64,000 bases of DNA from Thermoproteota archaeon. GTDB lineage: Archaea; Asgardarchaeota; Njordarchaeia; Njordarchaeales; Panguiarchaeaceae. The position numbers and the translations under genes were made by a program. Shown here one piece after another: positions 1 to 51,457 of this stretch. The first letter of the stretch is position 1, and every line of letters begins with the position of its first letter. A model generated the notes under the pieces. That model saw only the letters and a list, made by a program, of their open reading frames with translations. It did no database searches and was not told the origin of the DNA. The DNA lies in NCBI GenBank assembly GCA_024720975.1, contig JANJXX010000003.1:68555-132554 (forward strand), in the 5' to 3' direction.

Positions 1-3000
1 GATCCAAGGCTCTGCTGTCCGACGAGTTCTGTGCTTAACCTGTATGCGAGATTATATGTGATATTAACATTTATCACTTCAATACCATAGAATGTTATGT
101 TCCCGTAACCCTTGATGGATGCATTGAAAATGCTATTTTCTATTAGATCCTTAAGAAACTTATAAGTCTCATTCCTGCTAAATACATACATGTCGACTAT
201 TAAACTGGATGTTTCTTTCGGTCGCACCAGAGCATCGCTTATGAACACTCTAGCAACGGTAAGTTGATCTCTGATTACTTCTATTGAGAATGGCCCAACA
301 GCGGCATCTACTCCGTACGGGTTCTTGAATGAAATTGATGTATTGAAATGATATGCTTTTATACCATTGATTATTTCCTCGCCTATGTACTTAAATTTAT
401 CTATGCTTACAGCAAGATTTGGAAGGGCACTAGCTTCGATAATCGCTTGAGTATTAGGAATTGATGTTATGTTGCTTAGCTTGAATGGCAAGGTTACATT
501 CACGCCAAATATTTCGGCTGTGACTTCTCCACTTATTACTAGCGAGTGAAGTTTACCCTCGATTATTCTCTTAAGAACCTCTGCTGTGTACTCTTTATTT
601 GATTTGTGTATCTTTATGTAAGCTTTTATTTGTTTTCCGTTGACAGTATTATACAAATCTATTGTAGAGTTTGAGCTCAAAGTTATTGCTGGAAGACTCC
701 AGCCAATAAGCGATATATTCACTTCATACTGAAATACCTTTACGGGCAAGTGATCAAGCCTAGCCGAAAGAGATATCTCTAGCAACGTCTCACTTTGATT
801 GTCATAAATTATGGAAATATCCTCTAGATCTAAACCTCCTAGTCCACCTATATCCTGATATCCACCCACGCCAACACTATCAGTTATATTCACTAGTAGT
901 CTTTGGATAAACGTTATTTGTGGAAATTCTACCCCAAATATTTTGATGCCCACTCTTCCATCGATTGAAGCATTTATAAGCCCATTACAAGCCAGATCAA
1001 CCAAGAAGTTTCTCATAGCCTCCTTTCCTTTGAATATGTATATGCTTACGCTTAGGAGTGTTACTTTCTTGCTTTCCAGTATGTATCTATCTTTCAACAT
1101 AATTTTTACTAGTCTCTGACCATCTCTGCTTAAGTATATGCTTGCATCCCAAAATTCTACCGTTATTCCCATCGTATTGTTAAATGTTACATTTACATCA
1201 AATCTAAAGGCATCCTCACCATCAACCTTTGTCTCTCCTGCATATTTAAATCCCGCGATACGGAATAGATTACTCAACCTAATTGAAGACAGAACTGACT
1301 GTTGAGTTTCCTCGGATGACATATCTATGCGAAAGTCTTTGAATGTTATCACTCCAAAGTCCCAATCAAATAACGACAAAGCTAATGTGGCATCTACGTA
1401 TAATTCACTAACGTTACCATAAACTAAGCTTCTAATCATATCTACAAATTCACTCGATTCGTTACGAAGCACTATTTTTAATATCACATCCTTGTTACCT
1501 GGTCCTCTTATTGGTTCCTCGAGTATAACTTGAACTGGCGGATTTATGCAGTCCTTCCTTAGGCTCACATCAGCAATTAGAAGACTTATAACCATCGGTA
1601 TAGGTATATCAACAACTGTCTTTATGCGTATTTCGATTCGATTTGGATACTCGGTCACATCAAGGAGCTCAACACTTCCACCGCCATAAGTCGATGTTAT
1701 ATCTTTCGTTCCTAAGAGCGTTAATGAGTCCATTAGCGAAACTACAAAATTCGTCTGAAAGTCTTCTAGGTTTATCTCAACTCCACCTAAGCATGCGGTA
1801 ATATTTCCACGTATGATCACATTAACTGCTTTTCCATGAAGTGTATCGTTTAAGAATTGACGTGCAGATTCCGTCTTGAATATATGTACATTAACAGCAA
1901 TCAATCTTGATTCGAACTGTGGGATTCGAGTGGATTGCGGTATGACAATTTCTAGTGCAGGTTCAATACTATTCGGAGGATATACATAGAGGTCTCCAGG
2001 TCCTATGTCTAATTCTGCACCAAATGGGTTAGTTATTGTCGCGTTAACATATATTGCATAGCCCTCTAGATTATTAATGACAACTTTACCAGCATATTTA
2101 ATGCCACTAATCTTGTAGAACTTAGATGCTTCTCCTGCTACTGGGACACTACCACTGGAGAGGGAAATCATGCCCCCTCCTGCGCGTATAGGGACGCTAT
2201 AGAACATTCTGCTGAGAAACTTCATGTCAATTGAACCAATGAACATTACATCACTAGTCCACGTGCCTTTGATGAAAGATTTTATAAATTCACCTATGTC
2301 TGGAGAGTCTTTTCTGATTCTTATCTCTATTGTTGGCTGGCAAGTTACTAGTCCTGTTTCTGACTCTTGATTAAGGTCTATATTTCTGATTTTCACACTT
2401 CCTATAGTACTAGAGTTGTATACTATGTTACCTCTAATTTCATATATTGCCAAGGGCATTCTTTTATAGGTCAGTGTAACAAGCGAGTTGACTATGAGGT
2501 ATTTATCTGTTGCGGTTATATTATACTTCATATCAGTTATATTGAACCCAGCCATAAGGCTCGATAAGTCGAACCCCTGCCTCATGAATTCGCCCATATC
2601 TACTGCAGGAGCACTCACTTGACTAGTAGAGAATGTAGATAGGTCTATCTTTTCTATCCATACGCCAGCAAAGTATACATCGGCTGTACCTGCCAAAGAG
2701 GCACTAAATTCATTGTTGTAGAGTAACCGGTTTAAGAATGCGTGTAAGTTCTCATTGTCTATAAAATCTGCACTTATGCGGAATGACCTGTTCTCATTAG
2801 GACTTACCAAGATTTTCTCATCTATTCTTACATTAAGAATTGATTCATCATTTTCCCCTAGTAGATCAATGTATAGTGGTCCAAAACCTATCGTCCAGTT
2901 TAATTTGTTCGTTAGTTCGATCGCTACATCAAATGAGTGCCTTACTTCACTTCCGATGATTTGTTCCCCTAAGTAGCTTATATCTAGATTGCTGATTCGA

Positions 3001-3986
3001 AGATTCTTACTCAGCAACTTAAATATCGCATCAAATATTGATGATGAAGCCCCTGGGGATTGCACTGGTGATAGAAAACCAGAGAATTGAGATATGTCAA
3101 ATTTTACCTCTGAATTTTCGACCTCTATTCCAAATATCTTCAAGGAGAGACTTCCTCTTAGCTTGCCACTGACTTTACCCTCTTTTATTGCAAGATTCAG
3201 GAAGTTTTCCAGGGCGCTTCCCTTTATAAAACGCAGATGTATTGATGTACTGAAGTTACCACTTGCTGAGTCTAGGATGTATTCCGGTATGGTTATATCA
3301 AGCACACGGCCGAGACTAGTTAGCAAGCTTAAACTGACATCCCTAATTTCTACGGTACCCACTTGGAGTAACTCGGTTGGAACGAAGCCACTTACGAATA
3401 CCTTTGCCTCGCAGAAGCTTTTTGTCTCGTTAGTGAGTTCGATCTCTTTGATCTCAAAACTTGGGAAGAAGCTCGAAATCGAGATCGATGCACCGCCTCC
3501 TGCCGGGCTTAGGTCAATTAGATCTTTTAACGAAATGTCTAATGGTATTCTAATAGCCTCTATCACCCCAAATAGTGATATCGGATATTCAACCCTTATT
3601 TTAGCATCTATTTGTTGGGAGGCTAGGTATGTCCTTATTAGTCTCTTCGTTGCCTCAGTTTTATATAATTTTAATGATACCGTTGATATACCCAACTGAC
3701 CTGGATCTAGTGTTATTGGACTAAGGTATCCAATACCTATTAACCCATCCGTCTGCGAATCTAATACTTTGAAGTTTATTGCAGGAACCCTCGTAGGTAA
3801 CCAGTGATTGTTTCTAATCAACATCTTTATGCTTAATATGCTAGAATCTTTCGTCTCACCAACGAATCTTATGGAGAGGGGCTTGAAGTCCATACCAAGG
3901 AGGGGCACTACTGAAATTACATTTACGGCAATATTACCTATAATTAGCAATATTACAATCGTCAATACTTTTCTCTTAAAGGTCAT
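1..3986 (-). CDS. Membrane-anchored protein built from at least nine tandem LEA_2/WHy-like (LEA14-type) repeats; partial, C-terminus lies beyond the window start
   Basis: Absent from the ORF track because it runs off the edge. Manual minus-strand translation from ATG 3986-3984 (MTFKRKVLTIVILLIIGNIAVNVISVVPLL...) stays open to position 1, about 1328 codons. An N-terminal hydrophobic anchor is followed by a ~140-145 aa unit recurring nine times. Each unit ends in a signature such as ALENFLNLAIKEGKVSGKLRGSLSLKIFGIEV, ARQFLNDTLHGKAVNVIIRGNITACLGGVEI, AMRNFLVDLACNGLINASIDGRVGIKIFGVEF or TYKFLKDLIENSIFNASIKGYGNITFYGIEV. Units contain NP(F/Y)G strands (ATITNPFGAELDI, ISFKNPYGVDAAV) like plant LEA14. 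CDS confidence is high; the family name is less certain. Confidence 0.8.
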   Translation of the reverse strand, partial: MTFKRKVLTIVILLIIGNIAVNVISVVPLLGMDFKPLSIRFVGETKDSSILSIKMLIRNNHWLPTRVPAINFKVLDSQTDGLIGIGYLSPITLDPGQLGISTVSLKLYKTEATKRLIRTYLASQQIDAKIRVEYPISLFGVIEAIRIPLDISLKDLIDLSPAGGGASISISSFFPSFEIKEIELTNETKSFCEAKVFVSGFVPTELLQVGTVEIRDVSLSLLTSLGRVLDITIPEYILDSASGNFSTSIHLRFIKGSALENFLNLAIKEGKVSGKLRGSLSLKIFGIEVENSEVKFDISQFSGFLSPVQSPGASSSIFDAIFKLLSKNLRISNLDISYLGEQIIGSEVRHSFDVAIELTNKLNWTIGFGPLYIDLLGENDESILNVRIDEKILVSPNENRSFRISADFIDNENLHAFLNRLLYNNEFSASLAGTADVYFAGVWIEKIDLSTFSTSQVSAPAVDMGEFMRQGFDLSSLMAGFNITDMKYNITATDKYLIVNSLVTLTYKRMPLAIYEIRGNIVYNSSTIGSVKIRNIDLNQESETGLVTCQPTIEIRIRKDSPDIGEFIKSFIKGTWTSDVMFIGSIDMKFLSRMFYSVPIRAGGGMISLSSGSVPVAGEASKFYKISGIKYAGKVVINNLEGYAIYVNATITNPFGAELDIGPGDLYVYPPNSIEPALEIVIPQSTRIPQFESRLIAVNVHIFKTESARQFLNDTLHGKAVNVIIRGNITACLGGVEINLEDFQTNFVVSLMDSLTLLGTKDITSTYGGGSVELLDVTEYPNRIEIRIKTVVDIPIPMVISLLIADVSLRKDCINPPVQVILEEPIRGPGNKDVILKIVLRNESSEFVDMIRSLVYGNVSELYVDATLALSLFDWDFGVITFKDFRIDMSSEETQQSVLSSIRLSNLFRIAGFKYAGETKVDGEDAFRFDVNVTFNNTMGITVEFWDASIYLSRDGQRLVKIMLKDRYILESKKVTLLSVSIYIFKGKEAMRNFLVDLACNGLINASIDGRVGIKIFGVEFPQITFIQRLLVNITDSVGVGGYQDIGGLGGLDLEDISIIYDNQSETLLEISLSARLDHLPVKVFQYEVNISLIGWSLPAITLSSNSTIDLYNTVNGKQIKAYIKIHKSNKEYTAEVLKRIIEGKLHSLVISGEVTAEIFGVNVTLPFKLSNITSIPNTQAIIEASALPNLAVSIDKFKYIGEEIINGIKAYHFNTSISFKNPYGVDAAVGPFSIEVIRDQLTVARVFISDALVRPKETSSLIVDMYVFSRNETYKFLKDLIENSIFNASIKGYGNITFYGIEVINVNITYNLAYRLSTELVGQQSLG

Positions 3987-3991
3987 ATACT

Positions 3992-3996
3992 TCACC
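3992..3996 (-). promoter_or_regulatory. Shine-Dalgarno-like GGTGA in the 10-nt spacer between the 1686-aa gene stop and the repeat-protein start
   Basis: Minus strand reads TAA GGTGAAGTAT ATG, so GGTGA sits 5 nt before the ATG. The same GGTGA/AGGTG motif recurs before other starts in the window (15012, 18697, 28427). Confidence 0.5.
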
Positions 3997-6900
3997 TTAA
4001 AGATCTAATTCTTCCGATTCGAATATCTCCAAGAACTCTTTCTCAATCTCTTCATAGCTTATTTCTCCTGTCACTGGCGCGGCTTTTTCATGGACACTAA
4101 ACCTACTTCTTGCAATGAACTTTCTGAGAGCTACAAAAATCGCCCCAACACAACTAAACGTACCAAGAACAATAAGACCATACATTAAACCGGCCTCACG
4201 AGCGGGTTTCACTTCAATCAATTTACTAAGCGATTTATCTTTGTAGTGCCCATTTCCAAGCACTTCGACTTTGATTAAATGCTCCCCATGCGAATCAGGA
4301 ACCCATATTATCTCTAGAGGTCCATTATAGATCGTTCTCACGAGTAGCCTATCACCGACAATTATCGACACAATAACACCAGCAACAGGCTCATTATCAT
4401 TGTCCGTAATATAAACTTTTATCCTAGCTGCATTCCCAATTTCCAATACGCTAGGCACATATACCTGGGCGTTCAAATCTTCTTCAAGAATAGTCAATTG
4501 CGTTTCAAATGAGCTGCTAGCATGAATACTCGTTGCTGAGCTTTGGATAATGAGTACATACTCGCCTGGTTTAAAGCTCATCCTTACTATAATTTTGGCC
4601 GTTCCATTTTCATCTGTTATTGTCGTTACCACTGGGTATTTCACATTACTACCATTTGAGAGATAAATTGATATAGGTATTCCCGCTAGAGTCTTATTAT
4701 CTTGATCGATAAGGATAACATAAATTTCTATGAAGTCGCCGTATTCTACCATTTGGGGTGATAGTGTAGCGATTATCTCGGTAGAAATCGCTTCTATAAC
4801 CAACGTGATCTTAGGACTATATACTAGCTCATAGAAGTTGCTCATAAGCTGTATCTCTAGGTAGTATGTTCCTGGTAGAAAATCTACATAGAATGGATAA
4901 GCAAGTCGTATTTGTGGTTTTAGAGTACCATTGTAAATGGTGTACAAGCCGCTGATAACGACGAATACTTGACCTGAATCATCTATAACTTCTTCTCCGT
5001 CGTTATCCGTAAGGAGTATTAATAGCTCCGAACTGTGTTGATAAGTTACAGTCCATGTGTAACTATTTGAGTATACCATCGCCCTTTCTTTGCATACATA
5101 CACGTAGTACGTATAGCAAGCTTCACCAACATAGAGGTCACTCCAAACTTTGACTATTATTGCTATTTGTTGGAGCGGAATGAACATATTCGTATTGACA
5201 CTAAGAACAGCTGTGCCATCTTTTACCTCCAGGATTTTACACAGAACAGTATTTCCTGAAACAATTGTTATATTAGCTATCCCTTGCACTATTGAGCAAT
5301 AATCGTCATCAAAGGCATGTATTTTTATTAATAAGGAATCTCCCCATTCAATGATACTTGCATTAGTACTTATATCGACGCCTTTGAGAACATCCTTCTC
5401 GACAATTAAATTGCGCGCCAGTGAAGCTTCATAAAACTTGTCACTTTCATAGATCATTATAATGTATACGTACTCGCCAGGAGTTAACCATTTCGGATAG
5501 CTACTACTGAGAATACGTACTACTAATCGACCGGATAACGAATAATTTCCTCCTAGCAAATAGATGTCATCATTTATTACTACATACACCTCGGCGTATG
5601 CGTTCACTGGCACACCGAGTTCGGTTGATACATTAGCGCAGATTGTACCACCATCAGAGAATACAATTGTAGCGTCGCTTGATTGAATTACCAAGTGAGC
5701 TTTGCTTACAGAAACCGCTACAAAGATCTCTGATGGATAATAACTCCTCACACTGTCCCCATCAAATGCTACACGAATTTCATATTCGCCCTCGGGCAGA
5801 TTCACAGCCCAGTTTATTATAGCCTTACCAGATCGGTCTGTATACCCTTCAGCTAGGATTTCTCCTCCGTACGATAGATACACATATGCGTTGGATACAG
5901 GATCTCCGAACATATCCACTAGGATTATCTGTGCCACGACTGTCTCGCTCCAAACCGGCGAATTTGTGCTTAGTGAAATTGTTATGCTCGTTAGTAACCA
6001 AACATGTACCCAAACAATGTTAGACTTTGATTTAAATACAGTGTCATTGAGACAAAACTCGAGTCTGAGGTAACCCGCTGGCGCGTGCAATGATGCCAGA
6101 TCCACAACCACTTGACTATTCTCTCCATTATAATATATTTCAATCGTATGCATTAAGCCACTTGAGTTATACACATTGATGTATACTTTTTGTCCTTCAA
6201 GGGGGATAATGCCTCCATCGTTTCGATATGCACTAAATACTATCGTGATAGTCTCGTTAGCTAGGGCATTTATTTCCGATGCATTGAATGAGAAAATTAC
6301 CTCTTCCTCCCTAATGGAAAGGCGCAAACAATATACAGAGAATGAGGAGTCACTTTCCCTATCATTATCCAGATCATAAATTGTTATCTCAATGTCGCAA
6401 TCCCCAGCACGCAGTGGAGTGTCTATGATTAGAAGCAGCTCGAATAGAGTTCCATTTGTGTACAATACTTGAGCTTGTTTCACTAGCACTATACTATAAA
6501 TCTTTATTACTATTGTTTCATTAACTCCGCTTGGATCACTCACAGATATTCTAATACTTAGGCCCTCGTCAGCCTCAATAATACCATCTCCAGTGCCACT
6601 ACTAAGATACTCTGATACACTTACATTGTGTATAACCGGTCCGTCGATGTCATCATCTAGAATTTCCCCGTATGTTATGAATGAGCGTGCTACGGCAGCA
6701 TCTCCCTGCCAATCATTATCTTTATCGTATGCTATTACTTCAAGAGAGAATGCAGACCCGACATAGTTTATCCAAATATTCCTCGGGATTATAATATATG
6801 CCGTATTTCCATTCCAGTAAATTGAATTGTTGTTGTATGTTATTGCTACATTGTACTTTTGGAAGTACACTATAAATGTCACAGAGCCTACTCCACTTTC

Positions 6901-9057
6901 TTGATCAGTTATAACGGCCCATATAACTAAGTCCTCGTTACTTGAGTCATATATCGTTATATAATTTCCAGGGAAGACTATTTCAGGCGGGTTTGGATCA
7001 TCATCAACAAGCTCGACATAGAATCTTTGACTTATAACAGCATTGCCAGCTTTGTCGATACACTTTGCCTCCCAATACAGTTTCTTCCCTACATGTGGTT
7101 TCCATTCACTTGCGGATATCACTATCCGAAACTCTCCACTTATATAACTTGCTACAATCCAATCACTCCAGTTTGTGCCACCATAACTATATCGTATTAG
7201 CACGCGCTCAACACCACTTATCTGGTCGCTGCACACAACACTAAGAACTATATTATTAGTCGCATTGTCTAGGAACACTGTTCCAATTTGAGGTGAATAG
7301 CTAAGAATTCTTGGGGCTATTGTGTCTATCTGAATCGGTCCTTTTCTAGCGCTCTCATTCTCATTACCGGCGCGATCTACTGCGACGACACTTATGCTCC
7401 AAACACCCGACGGCAATCCAATGGTTGCATAGAGTTGCTCGTATGGACCATACCAGTTAAAAAGAGAACCACTGCTATAGTTATAGACTCGTACCATATA
7501 GCATCTTATGCCACTCATACTATCCGTACTTTGACTCCATGCTATGTATACATTACTAGTATTGTACCATTTCGTGGAACTAGGTTGGGGATTTATGTTT
7601 ATTATCTCAGGTTTCGTTGGTGGTACAAAATCTACGTTTATTCCATGCTCCCAACAAAGCTCCCAAACTTTAGTTCTACTTAGATCAGTTCTCCAAGAGA
7701 GCAACCCATTTATAAACTCGAATATTGTTGTGGGTTTATAAGTTCTTACAACATACCAAATATCCGAAATACTGATACTCAGCGAATCTCCAATGCCATC
7801 GCCATCTTGATCATCATCACTTGAATCATATAGATCCCATAGAACAGCGGCGACACTACTTGCGACATCAAAATCATTGCGTGAGTTATCAGAATCGTAA
7901 AGCGTTTCTAAATCGCGAAGTTCAAAGTTTTCACTGCTTATGTAATAGCGCTTTATAACTTCTGAGAGAAATATCGACCAACCAACAACCCAAGCTGTTT
8001 TTGGGTCTGTGTGAACATTAAAGTTATAGTTGCGCTCAAAGCTAGGTAATACGCTGCGTTGTGCCAGCAAAAATTGTGCAAAGGCCATGAAGAACTCCGT
8101 GTAGTTTGTAGCAGCTGCTGCCCATAGTCTTTTATCGGTAGTGTTATAGAAATAAACGCTAGTTTGGGCTGGGTATGTTATATTTAATCCGGGTAAGCTG
8201 CTTTCACCTAAGACGCTGATTGCAAAATCTCTAGCTAGCATTGCAAATAACATGATCTCTCCAGCTGGTCCTCCAAGAACATATACAATGGATTGAGGGG
8301 GTGTTACATAGCTAACGGTTGTGGCATCATTCTTATAAAGTTGTTGCCCGGATATTGGATCGGTCCAATAAGAACCTTGGATATATAGACTGTACGCACC
8401 TCCACCTAAATTGGAGTAGTCGTTATACATTCGGTATAGGTAAACTCTGTTGCTCGGATCGTATATAGCAACAACATTGGATATATCTGTATAAAATTGA
8501 AGAACAGGGTCTCTATTGCTAAGCTCCCCCCAATCAAACGCATCGTAGACTACACAGAAAGCTCCTTGACTGTCGGTTCTCGTAGATATTATAAATTGCC
8601 CACTGGGAGTATAACCGTCGCTATAGGGCTCTCCAGAGTCCTGATCCCAAACGTCCACTAAGATGCCCTGTATAGTTTTATACGCACCAGAGGATGTCCG
8701 TGAATATGGATCTCTGACTTTGACATAACCATAAAGGCGAACATCGCCGCTAGGAATACTAGGTGTTCCTGAGGTTATGTAGTAGTATAGATAGGCTAAT
8801 ATGACTGGATCCGTGTTTACCCTAGCTTTAAGTATATCTGCCTCGTTGGCATGCTTGAGCTTTGTTTTGGAGTGCGATACCACAATTACATTTTGTGCAT
8901 TCTTGGTACCTCCTCTGTGAGCATCGGTATGCAAATCATCTGCTGCTTTGGAATCCACCCGCAGGTTTTTTATGTTTGCACTAATGATTGGATCTACTAT
9001 CACTGCTAAAAATATTATTGAGACGAGCATAAACCTAATTATTTGAATTTTGTCCAA
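3997..9057 (-). CDS. Giant (1686 aa) type-I membrane-anchored envelope protein with Ig/FN3-like beta-domain array
   Basis: Track ORF. N-terminal signal/anchor (KIQIIRFMLVSIIFLAVIVDPIISA). Single C-terminal TM (GLMYGLIVLGTFSCVGAIFVAL) followed by a roughly 50-aa acidic tail ending EFLEIFESEELDL. FN3/Ig-like segment with SGIRCYMVRV...AVDRAGNENE...IDTIAPRI. Acidic cluster DSSDDDQDGDGIGD and many N-x-S/T sequons. Start is TTG at 9057 or ATG at 9030. Confidence 0.85.
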   Translation of the reverse strand: MDKIQIIRFMLVSIIFLAVIVDPIISANIKNLRVDSKAADDLHTDAHRGGTKNAQNVIVVSHSKTKLKHANEADILKARVNTDPVILAYLYYYITSGTPSIPSGDVRLYGYVKVRDPYSRTSSGAYKTIQGILVDVWDQDSGEPYSDGYTPSGQFIISTRTDSQGAFCVVYDAFDWGELSNRDPVLQFYTDISNVVAIYDPSNRVYLYRMYNDYSNLGGGAYSLYIQGSYWTDPISGQQLYKNDATTVSYVTPPQSIVYVLGGPAGEIMLFAMLARDFAISVLGESSLPGLNITYPAQTSVYFYNTTDKRLWAAAATNYTEFFMAFAQFLLAQRSVLPSFERNYNFNVHTDPKTAWVVGWSIFLSEVIKRYYISSENFELRDLETLYDSDNSRNDFDVASSVAAVLWDLYDSSDDDQDGDGIGDSLSISISDIWYVVRTYKPTTIFEFINGLLSWRTDLSRTKVWELCWEHGINVDFVPPTKPEIININPQPSSTKWYNTSNVYIAWSQSTDSMSGIRCYMVRVYNYSSGSLFNWYGPYEQLYATIGLPSGVWSISVVAVDRAGNENESARKGPIQIDTIAPRILSYSPQIGTVFLDNATNNIVLSVVCSDQISGVERVLIRYSYGGTNWSDWIVASYISGEFRIVISASEWKPHVGKKLYWEAKCIDKAGNAVISQRFYVELVDDDPNPPEIVFPGNYITIYDSSNEDLVIWAVITDQESGVGSVTFIVYFQKYNVAITYNNNSIYWNGNTAYIIIPRNIWINYVGSAFSLEVIAYDKDNDWQGDAAVARSFITYGEILDDDIDGPVIHNVSVSEYLSSGTGDGIIEADEGLSIRISVSDPSGVNETIVIKIYSIVLVKQAQVLYTNGTLFELLLIIDTPLRAGDCDIEITIYDLDNDRESDSSFSVYCLRLSIREEEVIFSFNASEINALANETITIVFSAYRNDGGIIPLEGQKVYINVYNSSGLMHTIEIYYNGENSQVVVDLASLHAPAGYLRLEFCLNDTVFKSKSNIVWVHVWLLTSITISLSTNSPVWSETVVAQIILVDMFGDPVSNAYVYLSYGGEILAEGYTDRSGKAIINWAVNLPEGEYEIRVAFDGDSVRSYYPSEIFVAVSVSKAHLVIQSSDATIVFSDGGTICANVSTELGVPVNAYAEVYVVINDDIYLLGGNYSLSGRLVVRILSSSYPKWLTPGEYVYIIMIYESDKFYEASLARNLIVEKDVLKGVDISTNASIIEWGDSLLIKIHAFDDDYCSIVQGIANITIVSGNTVLCKILEVKDGTAVLSVNTNMFIPLQQIAIIVKVWSDLYVGEACYTYYVYVCKERAMVYSNSYTWTVTYQHSSELLILLTDNDGEEVIDDSGQVFVVISGLYTIYNGTLKPQIRLAYPFYVDFLPGTYYLEIQLMSNFYELVYSPKITLVIEAISTEIIATLSPQMVEYGDFIEIYVILIDQDNKTLAGIPISIYLSNGSNVKYPVVTTITDENGTAKIIVRMSFKPGEYVLIIQSSATSIHASSSFETQLTILEEDLNAQVYVPSVLEIGNAARIKVYITDNDNEPVAGVIVSIIVGDRLLVRTIYNGPLEIIWVPDSHGEHLIKVEVLGNGHYKDKSLSKLIEVKPAREAGLMYGLIVLGTFSCVGAIFVALRKFIARSRFSVHEKAAPVTGEISYEEIEKEFLEIFESEELDL

Positions 9058-9265: not shown

Positions 9266-11062
9266 CTATACTAGAATGGCTAATAAACTCAGCAGTACTG
9301 ATAGGGCGAATGATAGTAGCATGTCTCTGATAAACACTTTAACATAGACGATAGATAGTCCCTTAATTGCTGCCGCATTGTTTCTACCTAAAACACGTAG
9401 ATTAATAACTTTTGCCTTGTTTGACACTTCTGCCTCAGTCAAATTTTCAATGGCCTTCCTAACGGTTTGTATTGTGCATTCCTTAAGGATTTCGCCCTTT
9501 TTCTCACCTAATATTGTGTACAGCTTATTTGCGTCCAACGCGCAGACTGTGTGCGTGTCTGTAGATAGTAGTTCTACCGACTCAGCTCCAAACTCCTCTC
9601 TTATTTTCTCTTTCATGTCTAAGTAGAACTTGGGATTTATATTGTTGGAGTCATAGGTAATGAGTATATGCAATTTTTGTCCTATTTTCATCGCAATTGC
9701 TACAATGCCGAGTCCTCCCAGACCATCTTTAGGCTTGACTTGTTCGCATTTACACTGATCCACCCCGATCATGAACTTCTTTGGTTCACAGACTTTAGTT
9801 ATAGCATTTCTAATGAGTTTTCCAAGCATGTGATACTCTTTACTATCAATGTCAAGCACTAAACCTTCCACTGGTTCGGATAGAGAATTATGGGCATCTA
9901 CCAGAAATACATTCTTTCCTGACATATGACCAAGTTCCATTGCAAAATAACCAAGTGACGTTTCTAAATCATCCGAATTCTGAGGAGCGTTAGAGGCTAG
10001 CAGATATGTTTGATTTCCGAGTGATAATTTAGTTACATGCAAGGATCCATTATTAAATATTTCAGGTTCACATATTTCATCGTACCAAAAATTCTCATCA
10101 AAGATGCACTTTATTTCCCGCTCGATTACATCCAAGAGCTTGAATTGCTCCGCCAGGGACGGTAAATTGGCATCATGTGAGGATGCACCCTTGAGAAACA
10201 AAGTGGGAATTTTTAGCCTATTCTTCATCTCTCTGAAGAGTATCTCCGGAAAATCCGATGAACCGGAGTTAAGCAAGGGTCCTGGGTGTATTTGAGCCCC
10301 AACGATTGCGAATAGTGGCTCTTTTCTATCTTTGGATCTGAAAGCTGTTATTGCCACTGGTATTTCGCGATCGATGCTCATTCTCTCTAGTATTTTCTCG
10401 AACTCATCACGTTTTCGATCAAGTTTAAGCATTAGGAATGCTCTTACGAGCTTCAGTGTGCCAATTTTATTTGTAGTCGGCCATATTTTTTCATTGGAGT
10501 AAATTATTGCAAGCGCGGTAAGTATTACCAGAGCGATTAAGAGTGTCACCTTTGCGAAAGGTGTAATAAAATTCAAAGTTGGGTTATACTGTGCTGTTAA
10601 ACAATTGGTGCTTCGGATTAATGATAAACTTATGATGGAGACATTCGAAAAGACAAAGAAGGCCGACTTCCAAATGCCCCAATTTACCAATCCTAGCACA
10701 ATATATAGCTCCAGGACTGATAGTATGCAGAGAAAGATTGGACAAAACCACGCACGCAACAGAGTTAAAATTAATATGAGGTTAAGGAAACCTAGTAGTA
10801 TATTAGAAATGGCAAGCGCTCTTCTACGATTTAGAGCTCTTACCTCTTGTGGTAGCTTTAATAATAGTAATGGCATGAAAACAGCTGCAACTGTTAGGAT
10901 ATAGACATCTATTGATGTGACATCTACCCTGTAAAGATTCCATAGAATTACAAAGTATATAGAGAACTGAGCCATTAGTGTGAGAAGAGGAGATTTAAGA
11001 CTAGGGAAAAGAAACATGAGGCGATACAAACGATTGATCTCTTTCATCTCATTTTCGCTCAA
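9266..11062 (-). CDS. Archaeal polytopic membrane protein with large C-terminal soluble domain (DUF2070-like, tentative)
   Basis: 598-aa ORF. The N-terminal ~200 aa are multi-TM. The C-terminal domain has His/Asp-rich motifs IHPGPLLNSGSSDFPE, GASSHDANLPS, LVDAHNSL and STDTHTVCAL, and there is a final C-terminal TM. The family name is from memory of size and architecture only. Confidence 0.6.
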   Translation of the reverse strand: MSENEMKEINRLYRLMFLFPSLKSPLLTLMAQFSIYFVILWNLYRVDVTSIDVYILTVAAVFMPLLLLKLPQEVRALNRRRALAISNILLGFLNLILILTLLRAWFCPIFLCILSVLELYIVLGLVNWGIWKSAFFVFSNVSIISLSLIRSTNCLTAQYNPTLNFITPFAKVTLLIALVILTALAIIYSNEKIWPTTNKIGTLKLVRAFLMLKLDRKRDEFEKILERMSIDREIPVAITAFRSKDRKEPLFAIVGAQIHPGPLLNSGSSDFPEILFREMKNRLKIPTLFLKGASSHDANLPSLAEQFKLLDVIEREIKCIFDENFWYDEICEPEIFNNGSLHVTKLSLGNQTYLLASNAPQNSDDLETSLGYFAMELGHMSGKNVFLVDAHNSLSEPVEGLVLDIDSKEYHMLGKLIRNAITKVCEPKKFMIGVDQCKCEQVKPKDGLGGLGIVAIAMKIGQKLHILITYDSNNINPKFYLDMKEKIREEFGAESVELLSTDTHTVCALDANKLYTILGEKKGEILKECTIQTVRKAIENLTEAEVSNKAKVINLRVLGRNNAAAIKGLSIVYVKVFIRDMLLSFALSVLLSLLAILV

Positions 11063-11142: not shown

Positions 11143-11853
11143 CTAATAGTATTCATAATCTGAATAATCTTCAGACTCGTTGTATCCGTGCTCCACTATT
11201 GTGTATACTATAGCAGTTTTATACCCCAGCATACGACGCATAAATTTACTACGAAAGACTATTGCAAAAAGTATCCCGCCTATGATGCCACCAATGTGCG
11301 CATAGTGAGCGATAGTTGGAAATATGCCCACAATAGCAAACAATGTGAAGAGTGCCACTAGCATTGTGATCATTGCCCATGCGGGAAGAACAAGGAATGC
11401 GAAAAAGACAAACATGGCTATTCTTCTTTGAGGATAGAGAACAGCATAAGCCCCTAAAATTCCAAAGACTGCTCCTGATGCTCCAAGCGCTGGGATGTCT
11501 TTGTAGGGACATAAGAGGATGTGCATAAACGCACCAAGAAGCCCAGAGAGAAAGTACAGAAGTGCAAATGCCTTATGACCAAAATTGCGTTCACACTCTG
11601 GCCCAAACATATATAGAGCGTACATGTTAAAGAATATGTGAAGAAAATCAGCATGGAGAAACATGTGAGTTATTATAGTCCAAAGCATGGCACCGCGTAG
11701 AACTGCATTCGGACGCAGAGCGAAGTAATTGATCATAAGCGCTGGATTAATGAGTTCTAAAACGAAGATAACTAGGTTTGATATTATTATAGATTTAACC
11801 ACAATAGGATTGAAACGATAGGGTTCTAGTCCGTGTTCGTACCAGAAAACCAT
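11143..11853 (-). CDS. Rhomboid-family intramembrane serine protease
   Basis: HADFLHIFFNMYALYMFG (H..H..N motif), catalytic GASGAVFGILGAY (GxSG) and AHYAHIGGIIGG (catalytic His helix); 6-7 TM profile. Confidence 0.85.
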   Translation of the reverse strand: MVFWYEHGLEPYRFNPIVVKSIIISNLVIFVLELINPALMINYFALRPNAVLRGAMLWTIITHMFLHADFLHIFFNMYALYMFGPECERNFGHKAFALLYFLSGLLGAFMHILLCPYKDIPALGASGAVFGILGAYAVLYPQRRIAMFVFFAFLVLPAWAMITMLVALFTLFAIVGIFPTIAHYAHIGGIIGGILFAIVFRSKFMRRMLGYKTAIVYTIVEHGYNESEDYSDYEYY

Positions 11854-45490: not shown

Positions 45491-48400
45491 TCAGAGTTTT
45501 TGCATTTTGCGCTTCTTAATAAATAACAGTCCCACAAATACTACAGTAACTAAAATCGTTATAATCAGCGATATGAGGAATGGGCCAAGGATTATTATAG
45601 TTACTTTCATTGGCTTCCACAGATAAATGCTTCTTGATGCACTAAAGCCCCCAACACTGGCCCTTATTTCATATTCACCTAAGTCTAGTCTCTCATATTC
45701 TCTTACAATTCCTTGATAAAGGACGATTTTGCACTTTCCTTTTGGCGCATCTAGCTCATAAGTCCTTGAGTCTCTTCCAATTATCGTGACTTTAGCGAAT
45801 TCGGGCTCCCTTAGATCATAGAGAACTTCGATAGTCAAGGTATACAGTATATGTATCTCGGACAGGTCTTCAGCAAATATTGGATACTCCAACAAGGTAT
45901 CTATTAGCCAAATTCTCGAAAATCCATCAGCTCCCAGTGTAAAGATTTGTGAGTTGATCACAGTAACGTTGGAGAACATCATTGCTAATATCGTTAGATC
46001 GATGAGTTCAGACGCATAAGCATCTATTCTATAGCCCATTTGTTCATTGTAAAATTTAGTAACTCCCAGTATATTCTTAAGCTCTACGTGACCATAAACA
46101 AATACATCAACAATTCCAACTTGTGATTTACTGATGTATAGTCTGGTTCCATAGCCTGGATTTAATAGGCGCACAAAGGATGAAGAAATTTCCAGGTCGC
46201 TTGGGCCTCCTACAATGAGATATAATGATCTTGAATTATTCATCAGGATACTTGAAGACGCATTTATGAGAATTATTGACGCGCTTAAATTTTCAAGACT
46301 TACTAAAGCTCCATGAACCGTAATGTTGAGCATAGTTATCTCTACTTGACTAACACTTATGTTCCACGGCGCTCTATCAGCTATGTCAGTTGTTGTTGAC
46401 TTGGGTAAAGAACCTTCTCCTAGATTTCTTAGAGTTAATCCAAGGTTAACGATGCTGAAGTTTAAACCAATCTTTGATTCATTTATAACAATGTCACCAC
46501 CATATCTCATAGAGACGGAACCCACAGTACTAGACTTGATAATTACTGTTGAGGTATACGATGAAACATCCACTTTATGTACCTTGGAGTCGCGTAATTC
46601 TAATCTCGAGAACTCCCCAACTACAAAGCTCCACCTTGATATTTTTGTATCGATAAATAATCCCCTTGAGAATAGCGGGATGTCTTCTGGGGCTGATGCT
46701 TTGTATAGATATGTTGGTTGAACCCCCTGAGCATAGGCTTCAGTGAAGATTATATATATCGATAACCCTATCTCTGACCCAACTATTGAGAACTCCGTGA
46801 GATAAGGCATGAAATCTCCAATATTTGAGTTTAATAACACGACATCACAAAGAACCAATCGAGCTTTTTCAACGTAACTCGATGATATGTATGCCTCCGA
46901 TCCTTCTGCTAGTATTTCATTTATTCTAGAATTTTCTACGAGAATTTTCGATTCCACTAGGTTCATAGTACGTATTTTGGAATTTCGTATGCTTATGTTT
47001 GAACGATATGCATCGATGCTTACCTCGAGAATCGTTGTGTTTATTATCCTCAGGTTTTTGGAGATATCCAAGGAAATCGGCTTGTATGCCCCAACACCAT
47101 CGATATTTACAACATCCTCGATCTGGGATAATCCAAGATAGAGGCGCGTAGCTGAGTTCCTAATTATCGCTGAGACGTTCGCTCCTCCTTCAAGATGCAC
47201 CTCTGAGTATCCATAAACTCTACTATTTTCTAAGATCAACATTCCATTGTAGGCAATTCCTACCGATATCACATCAGACTCGATAATCTCTAATTCAACG
47301 CGTCCATAAATTCCGAGTCCGATTGCATACCAACCAGTTATGGATGTATTAACCAACGTGAGCTTTATTGGTGTTGATGCGTTAACAAATTCGCTTAGGG
47401 TCGCATTCTCATAGTACCCAGGCCTTAGCTTTAGTCTATAACTACCCTCAAGAAATCCTAGTATTATGTTTGCTGTCGTCTTTGTCATAAAAACGTCTGA
47501 TTCAATAATATATGTGTATATAGACGTAGTTTCATTGAAGGCAACGCTAGAGCCCCAGATTATTGTTATTGACGATAATTTTGAATTGTATATCACTAGT
47601 TTTGATCCGTAAATTCCCATTAAGTCGCTAACTATAACGTTTTTAACTCTCGCTGTGGCATTGGATATGTAAAGTTGCGATAAAAGCGAATTCTCCACGG
47701 TGAATTCTCCTAGAGATAGATCTAAGATCCAAGACCCATGAGAGTTTACAACATTTATTCGCCAACTCTCATCAACATTTAGAACATCTGAATTCCAACT
47801 GGATATGTACCCAGGTTTAAGGTTGCGAATTACGGCATTTTCTTCTGATATTGCTATGTATATTGTGACCACGGATTTATCAATAAAAATGTCTGTACCA
47901 CTTATTGCAGCTACAACACCTCCATAAGATGACAAGATACGTGCTTTAGCAGCATTGCCAAGGCCAGCTACGATATCAAATACCACGCTATTCAGGTTAA
48001 TCTCGGCATTTCCAAGGACATAAACAGTGTTCAGAATTGATCTATAAGCATTTGTCTTAGATCCCCCCGATGCAAATATTGTATCAATTATTGACTCTAC
48101 TATATCCACACTGGAATCATGTGTTACACGTACTAGTGACGCCTCAGAGGATTCAATCGATAATCGGCTGTTGTAGAAGAGATATATCCAGCCTAGGATT
48201 GAGCTTTTTACAACTATATTGCTATCGTAAGAAAGTATATCCCAGCCAAGTACATATACATTAGACAGATTTATCGACCAACCACCGCTTTTAACAAGAA
48301 TCATATAATGTATATCGCCTGGCTTTAGATTCTCGATCTCCACATTTTCAAGCTTATAAACGAGACCGAACCAGATCATGCTGTCTCTTGCCAGTATGTT

Positions 48401-51400
48401 AGCCGAATCATAGACTCTAAGCCAGTATAGAATCTTCGACTTTTCCGAGATTAGTTTAGACGAATTCTCAACATCGATTACCGCAGATCTTGAGTCGGAT
48501 AACGTTACATTTGAGATGCCACTTATTCTCGCCTCAACTATAGTTGAATTGACTATAGTCACCTCTGAGGTTCTTGCTTGTATGCATTCTACTCTCGATG
48601 ATGATACTTCCATCTCGGAATTTTCAAGATCCATTACAGTTACGAAACTAGTGCTAATGCTTCCAACTGAGCTATTTAACTCAACATTTTTAGCTTTCAC
48701 ATTCTGAGCACTAAGCTCAGAGTTTTCTGCTATATATACCCTCAACAAATCCGATACATTTTCAAGAGCAACAGTACTCGTTTTCAATACTGATAGGAAT
48801 GTTAAGTTTGCACATAAAATAGTAAGCGTCGAATTTTCTGATTCTATTATCAAGAGCCTGGAATTCTCTATCCTAATTGACACGTTCTTTAGAAGGAGAC
48901 TCCAGCCTCTAACATAAGCATCTTGGAAGGTTATATTGGAATCTCCTACTGCTAGGATTCGATCATGTTTTCCAGGCATCAATTCATGCAGTATTAGATC
49001 TCTAAAATTGGCTAGTACTAACGAAACTGTAATGTTAGATGCGAAGAGAGAGGCTTTAGAAGAGTTGATATAGATATTAGCAATTATCGAACTTCGCACT
49101 GTGACGTTGCCTTTAGTGGTATAAACGCTTGTTACTGTTACATTATCTAAGTATATAGACCCGTTCCAAGATATAATGCCAAGTGCTATCGTTGAATTCA
49201 AAACGAGACAGTCAAAACCTATATGCGACAAGTTTAGGTATTCTATAAGACCTTCACGCAGATTCGATAGCTCAATTGAGCTGTCCACCGCCTTCAATAC
49301 TAGACTAAAAGTCGAGTTAGACGCATTTAAGGTATTACCTGGGACTATCTCGATGCTACTAAGCACTGTCTTGTAAATTTTTAGTGACGAATTTGACGCA
49401 ACTAATCTTGCTACCATAAGAGAATCTGTCAAATTGGCTTTAGCGTTTCTAAGGTATACGTCCATGCTACTCAGTATCGTACTATTTCTTACGGTTATAT
49501 TAGAGTTAGCAATGTCTACCCAGCCGTTCAATATCATTATTGAGTTTTCAACTATGATGGTTGAATTATCGCAGAGTAAGTCATGTATTATAACGGTTTC
49601 ATTCTTCACTAACAGGCTGCCGTTGATTATTGTCACATTCCCCTTATCAATAATGTTACCAATAGTTTTGGGTACTATAGAGAGTGTAGGATCGCCTAGT
49701 AAGACATACTCAGCAACGGTTTTCCAATCAATGTAATAGCCCGTGATAACATTCGTTATTGGATTTCCTGCAACATATTCTGCAATTGTTCGTGCCCAAA
49801 CCTGTCCAAGATTTCGCACTGATGCGTCGAATACGTTCTTTATTGTTCTCCAGAAGATCTCACCCATAAGCCCAGTTGTTACTAACTCTCCTATGTATCC
49901 CCAGGCTATTTTCGTGGATCCCAAGAACGCAATAGCACCGCCATTCGGGTTTAGAACTAAAGCTTCGCCAAGGCCATCTATATCCTTAAACCATCCGGCA
50001 TCACATGAAAGTGCTATGAATATGGGATATATCTTGTTTATCTGGGCATATGCATCTCCGATGGTATACATCTGCGAGAATGTAAGAGCGAGACTGTCTG
50101 GTAAACCATGACCAGTGAACGCTATAAGATATGCTCCCTTATCGAACTCTACTCTGAAAGTTGCTCGGGTTAGGTTTCCTAGAGTCTCATAAAGCTTCAC
50201 TATTGTTGCATTCCTCACGAAGTTCTTTGAGAATTCAAGCAGGTACTCACCCTCGGGGTAACCTATTTGGAAGGTATCAGTTCCAGCGAATATGACCCTT
50301 GAGTACATAGGACTTGTAGGATAGTACTGCGCTATCTTTTCGATGACGCCGATAGCTTCAGTCAGATTACTCGCAGGTATACGCCCGATAAGCACATCTG
50401 GAATTCCATCTACCTTGTCATATCTAAGATCTCCCCAAAGACCATCTCCATTATCGTCCCAAGAGTACTGTAAATCTGCATAGTACAGATCTGTCTCCAC
50501 GAATTTACCATCTATCTCTGGATCATCGTCATAAGCACCGTCTGGTATGTATACCTCCCTGACTGGGACAACATCACTATCTCCTAGAATAATGACATAT
50601 ATAACGTTGTAGTTCTGAACAAAACTTCTTATGCAGTTTCTTATTTTCTCTGGAGAATCTCGTCCTTCGAATTCACTATATATGTCTTCTACGAATTTTA
50701 CTACAGATCTTAGACCCTCCCTGGATTTTAGACTTACTAGTTTTTCTGCAGCTGTTGATAAATGTCTTGACGTTATTATCAGTAGATCAATTGAATCTTC
50801 ACGAGCCTTCGTTGCTGGCTCTCGTACTTGGTACCTTAGATCCATGCGAATATCTTCATAGATTACTACTTGATTTTTGTCCAATAGTCTTAAGGGATAT
50901 ATGCGAATCACAAGATACGTTGTTCTCTCCAAAGTTGCTGGGTCTATACCGCGATAAATGTTCACCGTGTAAAGTGGAAAGTCTGCTTTGGGGTATGGTC
51001 TCACCAATCTGAGATCTCCAGCAGTTGAAGCTAGTGCTATTGGGTAATTACCGCTACTGTATCCATATAGGTATCTTTTTGAAATAGGCTCCAAGAACAC
51101 TCTCACATTTTCTGCATTGTAAGGCAATTTTATTATTGTAATATTGACCGGAAGTAAATTGCCCTCCACCGGCAGAATCTTAGTGTTCGAAATAGAAGGT
51201 ATGGCTCCGGTAGACCAAGTATCATCAAGCAACCTAAATCTCAGATGAATAGACATTTTAAGTGTCTTGTCGGGGTTCGTTATTAATTGATTGAGAATTC
51301 TACTTTCCTTGATGTAATTTGGATCCTGGTAATCATTCATAATATTTGCGGTGGCGTTATCTTTATCGAGTACGAATATCACTTGTAGTGACTGAGCAGC

Positions 51401-51457
51401 GGCCACTGGCGTCATGCTCATTAATATTACTATTGCAAGTGTGGCGTATTTATTCAT
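45491..51457 (-). CDS. Giant (1988 aa) surface-anchored peptidase C25 (gingipain-type cysteine protease) fused to a long beta-helix-like repeat stalk
   Basis: Signal peptide MNKYATLAIVILMSMTPVAAAQS. C25 core: DLLIITSRHL...YVIILGDSDVVPV...ETDLYYADL...PDVLIGRIPASNLTEA...FTGHGLPDS (His)...IFIALSCDAGWF (Cys)...GGAIAFLGST...LLGDPTLSI. About 1300 aa of short hydrophobic/N-x-S/T repeats follow. C-terminal TM ILGPFLISLIITILVTVVFVGLLFI plus KKRKMQKL. Confidence 0.88.
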   Translation of the reverse strand: MNKYATLAIVILMSMTPVAAAQSLQVIFVLDKDNATANIMNDYQDPNYIKESRILNQLITNPDKTLKMSIHLRFRLLDDTWSTGAIPSISNTKILPVEGNLLPVNITIIKLPYNAENVRVFLEPISKRYLYGYSSGNYPIALASTAGDLRLVRPYPKADFPLYTVNIYRGIDPATLERTTYLVIRIYPLRLLDKNQVVIYEDIRMDLRYQVREPATKAREDSIDLLIITSRHLSTAAEKLVSLKSREGLRSVVKFVEDIYSEFEGRDSPEKIRNCIRSFVQNYNVIYVIILGDSDVVPVREVYIPDGAYDDDPEIDGKFVETDLYYADLQYSWDDNGDGLWGDLRYDKVDGIPDVLIGRIPASNLTEAIGVIEKIAQYYPTSPMYSRVIFAGTDTFQIGYPEGEYLLEFSKNFVRNATIVKLYETLGNLTRATFRVEFDKGAYLIAFTGHGLPDSLALTFSQMYTIGDAYAQINKIYPIFIALSCDAGWFKDIDGLGEALVLNPNGGAIAFLGSTKIAWGYIGELVTTGLMGEIFWRTIKNVFDASVRNLGQVWARTIAEYVAGNPITNVITGYYIDWKTVAEYVLLGDPTLSIVPKTIGNIIDKGNVTIINGSLLVKNETVIIHDLLCDNSTIIVENSIMILNGWVDIANSNITVRNSTILSSMDVYLRNAKANLTDSLMVARLVASNSSLKIYKTVLSSIEIVPGNTLNASNSTFSLVLKAVDSSIELSNLREGLIEYLNLSHIGFDCLVLNSTIALGIISWNGSIYLDNVTVTSVYTTKGNVTVRSSIIANIYINSSKASLFASNITVSLVLANFRDLILHELMPGKHDRILAVGDSNITFQDAYVRGWSLLLKNVSIRIENSRLLIIESENSTLTILCANLTFLSVLKTSTVALENVSDLLRVYIAENSELSAQNVKAKNVELNSSVGSISTSFVTVMDLENSEMEVSSSRVECIQARTSEVTIVNSTIVEARISGISNVTLSDSRSAVIDVENSSKLISEKSKILYWLRVYDSANILARDSMIWFGLVYKLENVEIENLKPGDIHYMILVKSGGWSINLSNVYVLGWDILSYDSNIVVKSSILGWIYLFYNSRLSIESSEASLVRVTHDSSVDIVESIIDTIFASGGSKTNAYRSILNTVYVLGNAEINLNSVVFDIVAGLGNAAKARILSSYGGVVAAISGTDIFIDKSVVTIYIAISEENAVIRNLKPGYISSWNSDVLNVDESWRINVVNSHGSWILDLSLGEFTVENSLLSQLYISNATARVKNVIVSDLMGIYGSKLVIYNSKLSSITIIWGSSVAFNETTSIYTYIIESDVFMTKTTANIILGFLEGSYRLKLRPGYYENATLSEFVNASTPIKLTLVNTSITGWYAIGLGIYGRVELEIIESDVISVGIAYNGMLILENSRVYGYSEVHLEGGANVSAIIRNSATRLYLGLSQIEDVVNIDGVGAYKPISLDISKNLRIINTTILEVSIDAYRSNISIRNSKIRTMNLVESKILVENSRINEILAEGSEAYISSSYVEKARLVLCDVVLLNSNIGDFMPYLTEFSIVGSEIGLSIYIIFTEAYAQGVQPTYLYKASAPEDIPLFSRGLFIDTKISRWSFVVGEFSRLELRDSKVHKVDVSSYTSTVIIKSSTVGSVSMRYGGDIVINESKIGLNFSIVNLGLTLRNLGEGSLPKSTTTDIADRAPWNISVSQVEITMLNITVHGALVSLENLSASIILINASSSILMNNSRSLYLIVGGPSDLEISSSFVRLLNPGYGTRLYISKSQVGIVDVFVYGHVELKNILGVTKFYNEQMGYRIDAYASELIDLTILAMMFSNVTVINSQIFTLGADGFSRIWLIDTLLEYPIFAEDLSEIHILYTLTIEVLYDLREPEFAKVTIIGRDSRTYELDAPKGKCKIVLYQGIVREYERLDLGEYEIRASVGGFSASRSIYLWKPMKVTIIILGPFLISLIITILVTVVFVGLLFIKKRKMQKL

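Follow-up and report, generated by a model that had tools for sequence, protein, structure and literature searches.

Do two giant genes that lie end to end in an archaeal genome form one unit, and what might such a unit do? The question is raised by one edge of a 64,000-nucleotide (nt) stretch of assembly GCA_024720975.1, contig JANJXX010000003.1 (hereafter the window; G000:C23:68555-132554, G000 being the source assembly), where the gene for a giant surface protein, P1, is followed on the same strand by the gene for a second one, P2. We put at roughly 60% the probability that P1 and P2 are a conserved, co-expressed two-gene surface-protein operon of a genome-reduced, Panguiarchaeum-like archaeon of the Njordarchaeia, for which a role in contact is probable.

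The junction and the pair in related genomes

The P1 gene (3997..9057, minus strand, as are all features of the pair given below) begins with TTG at 9057, ends with TAA at 3999-3997 and encodes a predicted type-I membrane glycoprotein of 1686 amino acids (aa). The P2 gene begins with ATG at 3986 and fills positions 1..3986, which hold codons 1-1328 of its 2962; with 16 kb of extra contig added to the window, it was found to run past the window edge to G000:C23:63655 (complete gene, G000:C23:63655-72540). It is the longest open frame of G000, a 1.36-Mb assembly that is 81% complete. A first-pass annotation, made from the letters of the window, had recognized the two giant open reading frames (ORFs) and assigned them a span of more than 9 kb; the ORFs stand, and the span has to be corrected to a module of ~14 kb (13.96 kb), because the window edge cuts P2. 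Identical P1-P2 gene order was recovered in independent assemblies (ENA, JGI, Logan, NCBI), so the pair is neither chance nor an assembly artefact.

Between the TAA and the ATG lie 10 nt, GGTGAAGTAT (3987..3996), with the Shine-Dalgarno sequence GGTGA at 3996-3992; stop, start, gap and GGTGA all read in the sequence as they had been described. We took the first start codon of each of the 1098 ORFs of at least 150 aa in G000 and found GGTG at -12, -11 and -10 in 48, 94 and 28 of them (170 in total), with 2.7 expected per position. At the junction GGTG begins at -10, inside this genome-wide -12 to -10 peak, and GGTGA is a credible ribosome-binding site for P2; a candidate 16S 3' end carrying the complementary GATCACCTCC lies on contig C11. 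The junction RNA is without significant structure (fold z = -1.18), and the start is not hidden. The window locus thus has the marks of a coupled pair: one strand, a 10-nt stop-to-start distance and a Shine-Dalgarno sequence at the position typical of the genome.

Signals that could frame a transcript lie at the outer ends of the pair. The AT-rich 208-nt spacer upstream of P1 (9058..9265) is a putative promoter region with TATA-like boxes TTTATAAA and TTTTAAAT, and likely holds the promoter. Directly 3' of the P2 stop, an oligo-T tract, TTTTTGTTTTTTT, resembles an archaeal terminator, and at this locus a terminator-like T-rich tract is found after P2 only. The P1-P2 spacer in the window is too short for a promoter; one may lie inside the P1 coding sequence.

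Conservation of the gene neighborhood was the check proposed in the first-pass annotation, and on running it we found the pair order kept at eight of eight loci, the window included. Searches of a 5.8-billion-sequence set with the head domains described below returned six full-length P2 proteins for the P2 head and, for the P1 head, six proteins including P1 itself. At every locus with visible downstream DNA (8/8), a head-bearing P1 is followed by a P2 on the same strand, and among these loci there is no head-bearing P1 lacking the HExxH motif that is without a following P2. The order outlives extensive change: P1 identity between paired loci goes down to 34-37%, and at least three types of flank surround the pair, with DUF2070 and rhomboid genes (the window type), a rhomboid gene alone (L033) or an NTP-transferase gene (L027). 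The spacer measures 10 nt at the window locus, L023/L024, L025/L026 and L034, 24 nt at L033, 68 nt at L035, 99 nt at G001:C123 and 102 nt at L027 (= G004:C5). All four 10-nt junctions keep GGTGA despite changes of the stop (TAA/TGA) and start (ATG/GTG) codons. Lengths vary little, at 1672-1736 aa for P1 orthologues and 2962-2983 aa for P2, and all four complete paired P2 orthologues have 17 repeats. Identities of P1 and P2 across loci correlate at r = 0.99 (15 pairs), indicating co-inheritance without shuffling, as any two linked genes would show.

Architecture of P1 and P2

P1 opens with a signal peptide, MDKIQIIRFMLVSIIFLAVIVDPIISA (8977..9057, residues 1-27), presumably cleaved, with a hydropathy peak at residues 9-27 and K and R in the n-region. 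Beyond it the AlphaFold2 model has the strands of a prealbumin/transthyretin-like beta-sandwich (8509..8808, ~residues 84-183), which gave weak matches to the lipoxygenase N-terminal sandwich 5ek8, TTR-52 and SpaA, and then a thermolysin-like head (7618..8508, ~residues 184-480). A stalk of ~11 immunoglobulin (Ig)-like beta-sandwich domains follows (4207..7575, residues 495-1617), delimited with Pfam and a profile hidden Markov model (HMM) built from P1 itself. Pfam matched only Ig-like families in P1, over residues 540-1520 (Big_1, Big_3_5, Big_13, MG4 and CarboxypepD_reg); the self-HMM placed three class-A domains (495-782) and six Big_1-like ones (1036-1617), with room for about two between. 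In its Big_1, Big_3_5, Big_13 and MG-type domains the stalk resembles bacterial Ig-repeat adhesins (Big_1/Big_3; invasin- and intimin-like), from which P1 differs in its archaeal type-I topology, with a C-terminal transmembrane helix and an acidic cytoplasmic tail, and in its pseudo-protease tip.

The transmembrane helix (4123..4197, ~residues 1621-1645) has a hydropathy of 2.15 at residues 1624-1642. Beyond that segment the tail (cytoplasmic part at 4000..4122) measures 44 aa and ends in EKEFLEIFESEELDL, and aligned homologue tails share the conserved acidic end EEFLExFESEELxL. Similar acidic tails (EEFLEIFESEELDL, EIAEELDELFTDEL, EIEEEFRRIFEEE) are carried by several unrelated-looking giants of G000, including C29:12296-16993 and C29:1-3567. 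The acidic tail common to giant type-I proteins may be a cytoplasmic docking or sorting motif.

P1 gave nothing significant against PDB sequences, nor did a profile of its head, and Pfam has no M4 match to P1. Structure prediction was more informative. The AlphaFold2 model of the head region, made from eight sequences (predicted local distance difference test, pLDDT, 77.5; predicted template-modelling score, pTM, 0.84), shows a two-lobe domain preceded by a small beta-sandwich. Foldseek matched the two-lobe domain to vibriolysin MCP-02 (3nqx, E 1.8e-6), PlM4P (7ecc, E 2.5e-6), LasB (8cr4, E 1.2e-4) and thermolysin (4tln, E 2.6e-4), each with probability 1.0 and with TM-scores on the target of 0.50-0.54. 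The model therefore has the two-lobe fold of the M4, thermolysin-like peptidases such as 3nqx, LasB and 4tln, a beta-rich N-lobe with a helical C-lobe.

Unlike those peptidases, the P1 head has lost its catalytic residues and belongs to a membrane protein, in which it forms the tip of an 11-domain stalk. HExxH was not found anywhere in P1 or in its six other P2-adjacent homologues (0/7), while all three relatives not seen beside P2 (P0014, G013_499 and G012_501) keep HEYGH or HEYAH. In an alignment of residues 84-482 with seven homologues, P1 has MAFAQ and VGW where P0014, a distant homologue, has HEYGH and EGW. The third zinc ligand, a Glu, is lost as well: P1 reads TAWVVGWS against TAWIEGWA, TAWVEGFA and LAWSEGWS in the motif-bearing relatives, and across P1 proteins the position is Val or Asn. 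MAFFT and BLAST differ by four residues in the register of the first helix, with the motif absent from P1 in both, and the Glu-to-Val alignment is unambiguous. An acidic loop in the helical lobe, DDDQDGDGIGD, is invariant.

With zinc and catalytic residues gone, the P1 head should bind and not cut, and on the strength of the model it is best called a pseudo-protease on a long stalk. A possible starting point for it is seen in a sister genus, where two membrane-anchored proteins of ~500 aa carry a P1-type head with the motif intact, VVHEYGHF...TAWIEGWA in one (L008 1330-2829, G013:C135) and IVHEYAHF...TAWVEGFA in the other (L009 272-1777, G012:C98). From their sequences, these are probably active thermolysin-like ectoproteases and likely the ancestral form of the P1 head. 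Such short relatives surfaced only in the genome search; no stand-alone relative was returned from the 5.8-billion-sequence set with the head alignment as query. P1 would be a clear example of a protease head converted into what is presumably a module for binding.

P2 is anchored at the opposite end. Its sole clear transmembrane segment (residues 9-27, after MTFKRK) is a predicted signal-anchor helix, IIGNIAVNVISVV (3900..3968, hydropathy 2.55), bearing a conserved N-x-x-x-N motif; both Asn, four positions apart, are conserved in all seven P2-family N-termini compared, those of unpaired members included. A lipoprotein was ruled out, since no Cys or lipobox occurs before residue 192, which leaves P2 as a signal-anchor protein; archaeosortase-type C-terminal sorting was ruled out too, P2 being without a C-terminal hydrophobic segment. 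Hydropathy thus bears out the complementary topologies of the first-pass annotation, an N-terminal signal, C-terminal transmembrane helix and acidic tail in P1 and an N-terminal anchor in P2.

Iterative self-profile searches resolved the rest of P2 into 17 repeats of ~100 aa with ~40-aa linkers (residues 49-2450), the first nine of which lie in the window (60..3842), and a separate C-terminal head of 510 aa. The repeats are mutually 8-31% identical and, by their sequences, old. They are LEA-2/DUF3712-like: whole P2 (P0003) scored 65.6 bits against DUF3712 (PF12505; cut-off 24.1, E 7e-18) and 29.1 bits against LEA_2 (PF03168; cut-off 25.4, E 1.4e-6), and its paralogue P0008 scored 93.3 and 59.5 bits, respectively. 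Single repeats are seldom significant by themselves against the Pfam LEA-2 families, and a six-frame Pfam LEA_2 search of G000 missed P2 because single domains score too low. The DUF3712 match straddles the boundary between successive repeats. An AlphaFold2 model of repeats 5-8, from an alignment of 42 four-repeat segments of six family members, has a pLDDT of 74 overall, with values of 80-90 inside domains and less than 50 for the linkers. The modelled domains each comprise seven to eight strands, with a single helix ahead of the last two, which is the LEA-2 secondary-structure pattern, and the model suggests an array of beads strung on flexible linkers. A Foldseek search with the four-domain model returned generic tandem beta-sandwich proteins at TM-scores of at most 0.2, with no LEA-2 entry (e.g. 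3BUT, 1XO8) in the top 50, and neither the repeat profile nor the P2 head matched PDB sequences significantly.

The C-terminal head is the best conserved part of P2, 50-72% identical among full-length members; in the G004 orthologue it is 54% identical, against 41% for the whole protein. It is without informative relatives, as a search of 1.84 billion cluster representatives gave only five proteins, three of them at E <= 1e-10. One protein of the representative library, P0016 (672 aa), joins a single LEA-2 repeat to a P2 head that has a ~130-aa insertion resembling a pre-peptidase C-terminal domain; the head can thus sit on a much shorter stalk.

The closest parallels to the array are fungal. 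Levine (2021, bioRxiv 10.1101/2021.03.12.435176) described multi-copy LEA-2/DUF3712 type-II proteins such as yeast Tag1 and Ustilago UM15053, with 15 LEA-2 domains, and predicted a hydrophobic lipid groove for LEA-2 domains; typical archaeal LEA-2 proteins in that work have two domains and ~311 aa. Like P2, the fungal proteins have an N-terminal anchor followed by tandem LEA-2 domains, reach thousands of residues, and match DUF3712 most strongly, out of register with the LEA-2 unit (bioRxiv 10.1101/2021.03.12.435176). P2 differs in being archaeal and extracellular, not lumenal, and in its 17 copies, ~40-aa linkers, orphan head and paired giant gene. The giant multi-LEA-2 proteins, so far described in fungi, are hereby extended to archaea.

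Both proteins look extracytoplasmic, to go by their sequences, and are probably N-glycosylated. P2 has 75 N-X-S/T sequons where its composition predicts 30, and P1 has 24 where 14 are expected. Among the 885 ORFs of at least 200 aa (median 0.31 sequons per 100 aa, 95th percentile 1.29), P2 ranks 11th with 2.53 and P1 40th with 1.42; the other long sequon-rich proteins at the top are likewise giants with signal peptide and transmembrane segment. G000 encodes an STT3/AglB oligosaccharyltransferase. Topology and sequon richness agree on the envelope-type character that the first-pass annotation had given both proteins, and its remark that this is not a described archaeal envelope system holds to the extent that no Pfam or NCBIfam envelope family, S-layer families included, matches P1 or P2.

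Operon, obligate complex or independent neighbors

If the pair is an operon, a single promoter upstream of P1 would yield a bicistronic mRNA, P2 would be translated from the Shine-Dalgarno site right after the P1 stop, and the oligo-T tract after P2 would terminate the transcript. P1 would be exported via its signal peptide and held by its C-terminal helix with the Ig-like stalk of ~11 domains projecting; its tip would be the prealbumin-like sandwich plus the inactive thermolysin-like domain, whose cleft could serve as the binding site. P2, held by the signal-anchor, would be the longer string, 17 LEA-2 domains ending in the 510-aa head. The anchor-coding sites (4123-4197 for P1, 3900-3968 for P2) are 155-300 nt apart on the mRNA, so both anchors may be delivered to one membrane patch. 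The two proteins together would make tall fibers, tens of nanometers in length if extended, that touch partner cells or surfaces.

An adhesive or contact role is suggested by analogy, and, since the host apparently depends on others (see below), the simplest function to assume is contact with partner cells. The module takes up ~1% of the ~1.7 Mb genome. Considering this share, the presence of the largest protein, the conserved lengths and repeat numbers and the restriction to this genus and one neighboring genus, it is an obvious candidate for the contact apparatus. Direct binding of P1 to P2 would be an additional, unproven step.

Several observations weigh against a fixed operon. (i) The 10-nt junction is present at only four of the eight loci; of the translational coupling claimed in the first-pass annotation, the Shine-Dalgarno junction in the window stands, and the tight spacing is conserved in part only. 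(ii) A T-tract and a TTATAAA-like box stand at the start of the 99- and 102-nt spacers, so P2 may have its own promoter at G001:C123 and G004. (iii) In L028 (3400 aa, 20 repeats), G001:C78 and G005:C257, genes of the P2 family have no P1 upstream of them, so that P2 is not strictly dependent on an adjacent P1; as these unpaired proteins keep the anchor Asn pair, the motif points to self-association of P2 instead of pairing with P1. (iv) G004 has a second HExxH-less P1 paralogue downstream of P2 (L027 19093-27251), a 1901-aa open frame broken by a run of N and then an 825-aa open frame, so that three giant surface-protein genes are clustered at G004:C5; instead of a fixed pair, the locus may represent a variable island of such genes. 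(v) All paired loci come from one narrow genus-level clade, so the 8/8 are not eight independent observations, and all genomes compared are metagenome-assembled, 73-91% complete. (vi) The adhesion role is drawn from other small-genome archaea by analogy.

Perhaps the connection is tighter than co-expression, with P1 and P2 in an obligate heteromeric complex of fixed proportion, a single scaffold or canopy in which the dead cleft grips P2 or the transmembrane helices touch. The strict P1-then-P2 adjacency (8/8 loci) is what such a complex would lead one to expect, as are the encoding of both anchors so close together on one mRNA and the greater conservation of the P2 head relative to the rest of its protein. 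Also in its favor, the P1 proteins that have lost catalysis are precisely those beside P2 (7/7), and none of the three relatives not seen beside P2 has lost it. Against an obligate complex stand the junction, which keeps its tight form at only four loci and is elsewhere replaced by spacers of which the long ones look promoter-capable, and the existence of unpaired P2 genes. Nor do the membrane segments help: the P1 transmembrane sequence is not conserved in distant orthologues, and N-x-x-x-N is kept where P2 has no neighboring P1. We hold an obligate complex to be possible, at odds of about one to three.

Only slightly less probable, and still doubtful, is that P1 and P2 are independent surface proteins, adjacent by shared descent within a variable island and with no joint function other than that of envelope components. 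Many further giant type-I surface proteins are encoded in G000, three or four giant genes follow one another in G004, the paired loci all fall in one genus-level clade, and unpaired P2 genes again fit. Independent neighbors would not, however, readily account for an adjacency that outlasts divergence to ~34% identity and a change of both flanks (L027 and L033 versus the window), for an invariant order and strand, or for a Shine-Dalgarno-linked 10-nt junction that was retained though stop and start codons changed.

Host lipids, known systems and neighboring genes

Placement of the host lineage is debated, either with Asgard archaea or near the Korarchaeota. A recent study assigns it to Asgard, under the name Njordarchaeia, and characterizes the Panguiarchaeum clade by a reduced genome, the absence of lipid and purine synthesis and a possible obligate symbiosis (bioRxiv 10.1101/2025.02.13.637844). 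Njordarchaeia, Panguiarchaeum especially, are proposed there as the first obligate symbionts among Asgard archaea, and the clade is proposed to get lipids from partner organisms; the main text mentions neither cell surfaces nor adhesion (bioRxiv 10.1101/2025.02.13.637844). Our genome comparison agrees with the lipid-gene loss reported there for Panguiarchaeum: PcrB/GGGPS (PF01884), UbiA (PF01040) and Fe-ADH_2/G1PDH-type (PF13685) families were found in none of the five genomes of the genus (G000-G004; 75-83% complete), and each was found in eight of nine other genomes of the order. G000 carries a CarS-like gene at C11:275166-275669. From this gene content the host appears unable to make its own ether-lipid core. 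Among 151 genomes sampled from the phylum, P2-type repeat arrays are found only in this genus and one neighboring genus, and the P1 head in giant form only in this genus.

This lipid deficit invites an explanation in which the module is a lipid-harvesting tether, the 17 LEA-2 grooves of P2 binding partner lipids or passing them to the archaeon's own membrane while P1 docks the partner. P2 does exceed the Pfam cut-offs for LEA_2 and DUF3712, the G1PDH-type, GGGPS and UbiA-type enzymes were found in no genome of the genus concerned (0/5, versus 8/9 relatives), and partner-derived lipids have been proposed for the clade in the literature (bioRxiv 10.1101/2025.02.13.637844). The consequences would be considerable: if true, the P2 chain would extend to a partner cell held by the P1 pseudo-protease head and bring its isoprenoid lipids to an Asgard-lineage symbiont lacking glycerol-1-phosphate (G1P) dehydrogenase, geranylgeranylglyceryl phosphate (GGGP) synthase and digeranylgeranylglyceryl phosphate (DGGGP) synthase, which would be a concrete route for foreign-lipid uptake by an Asgard-related cell and a prokaryotic counterpart of the lipid transfer predicted for eukaryotic LEA-2 proteins (Tag1, Vac7, TMEM106B). 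Yet lipid binding by LEA-2 is itself only predicted, and the P2 model consists of separate beads and low-confidence linkers with no continuous groove. In G005 a P2-like giant coexists with all three lipid genes, and the heavy glycosylation suggests a structural coat. We consider the tether improbable, clearly more so than either a complex or independence.

Adjacent, co-transcribed genes for large glycosylated envelope proteins that act together are known from the Sulfolobales as slaA-slaB. Least probable of all is that P1 and P2 are an S-layer operon of this kind, one a lattice protein and the other a membrane stalk, since the two-gene layout, the large glycosylated proteins and the lack of any other recognizable S-layer gene noted in the region are outweighed by a membrane anchor on each protein, the absence of any match to Pfam or NCBIfam S-layer families or of a sequence relationship to SlaA-SlaB by the same searches, bead-on-string domains with flexible linkers that do not suggest a lattice, and a family limited to two genera.

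Among small-genome archaea that depend on a host, the Nanohaloarchaeota have giant surface proteins, the SPEARE proteins. Like these, P1 and P2 are very large, lineage-specific and extracellular, take up a sizeable share of a reduced genome and belong to an apparently partner-dependent organism; they differ in having no active protease or nuclease domains and in forming a conserved gene pair, and the Njordarchaeia are not DPANN. Giant lineage-specific surface proteins in partner-dependent archaea are thus already known, as are multi-copy LEA-2 type-II proteins in fungi. New are an archaeal LEA-2 protein with 17 domains and an orphan head, a thermolysin-like pseudo-protease carried by an Ig stalk, and the conserved pairing of the two in this lineage; a literature search found no description of the P1 or P2 proteins.

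We finally note the surroundings of the pair. Downstream of P2 are genes for a ferredoxin, aldehyde:ferredoxin oxidoreductase, aldo-keto reductase, FGase and urocanase. Upstream of P1 are a DUF2070 gene, which ends at 9266, and a rhomboid intramembrane protease gene (11143-11853, minus); a rhomboid gene precedes P1 in L023, L025 and L033 as well, and directly adjoins it in L033. As the P1 transmembrane helix is Gly/Ser-rich and the rhomboid gene is near, P1 could be cut by the rhomboid protease and so released from the cell surface. Farther along the window (45494-51457, minus) lies the gene for another giant surface protein, which has 1988 aa, a signal peptide, a C-terminal transmembrane helix, a basic tail and, at 2.41 sequons per 100 aa, one of the highest sequon densities of the genome.

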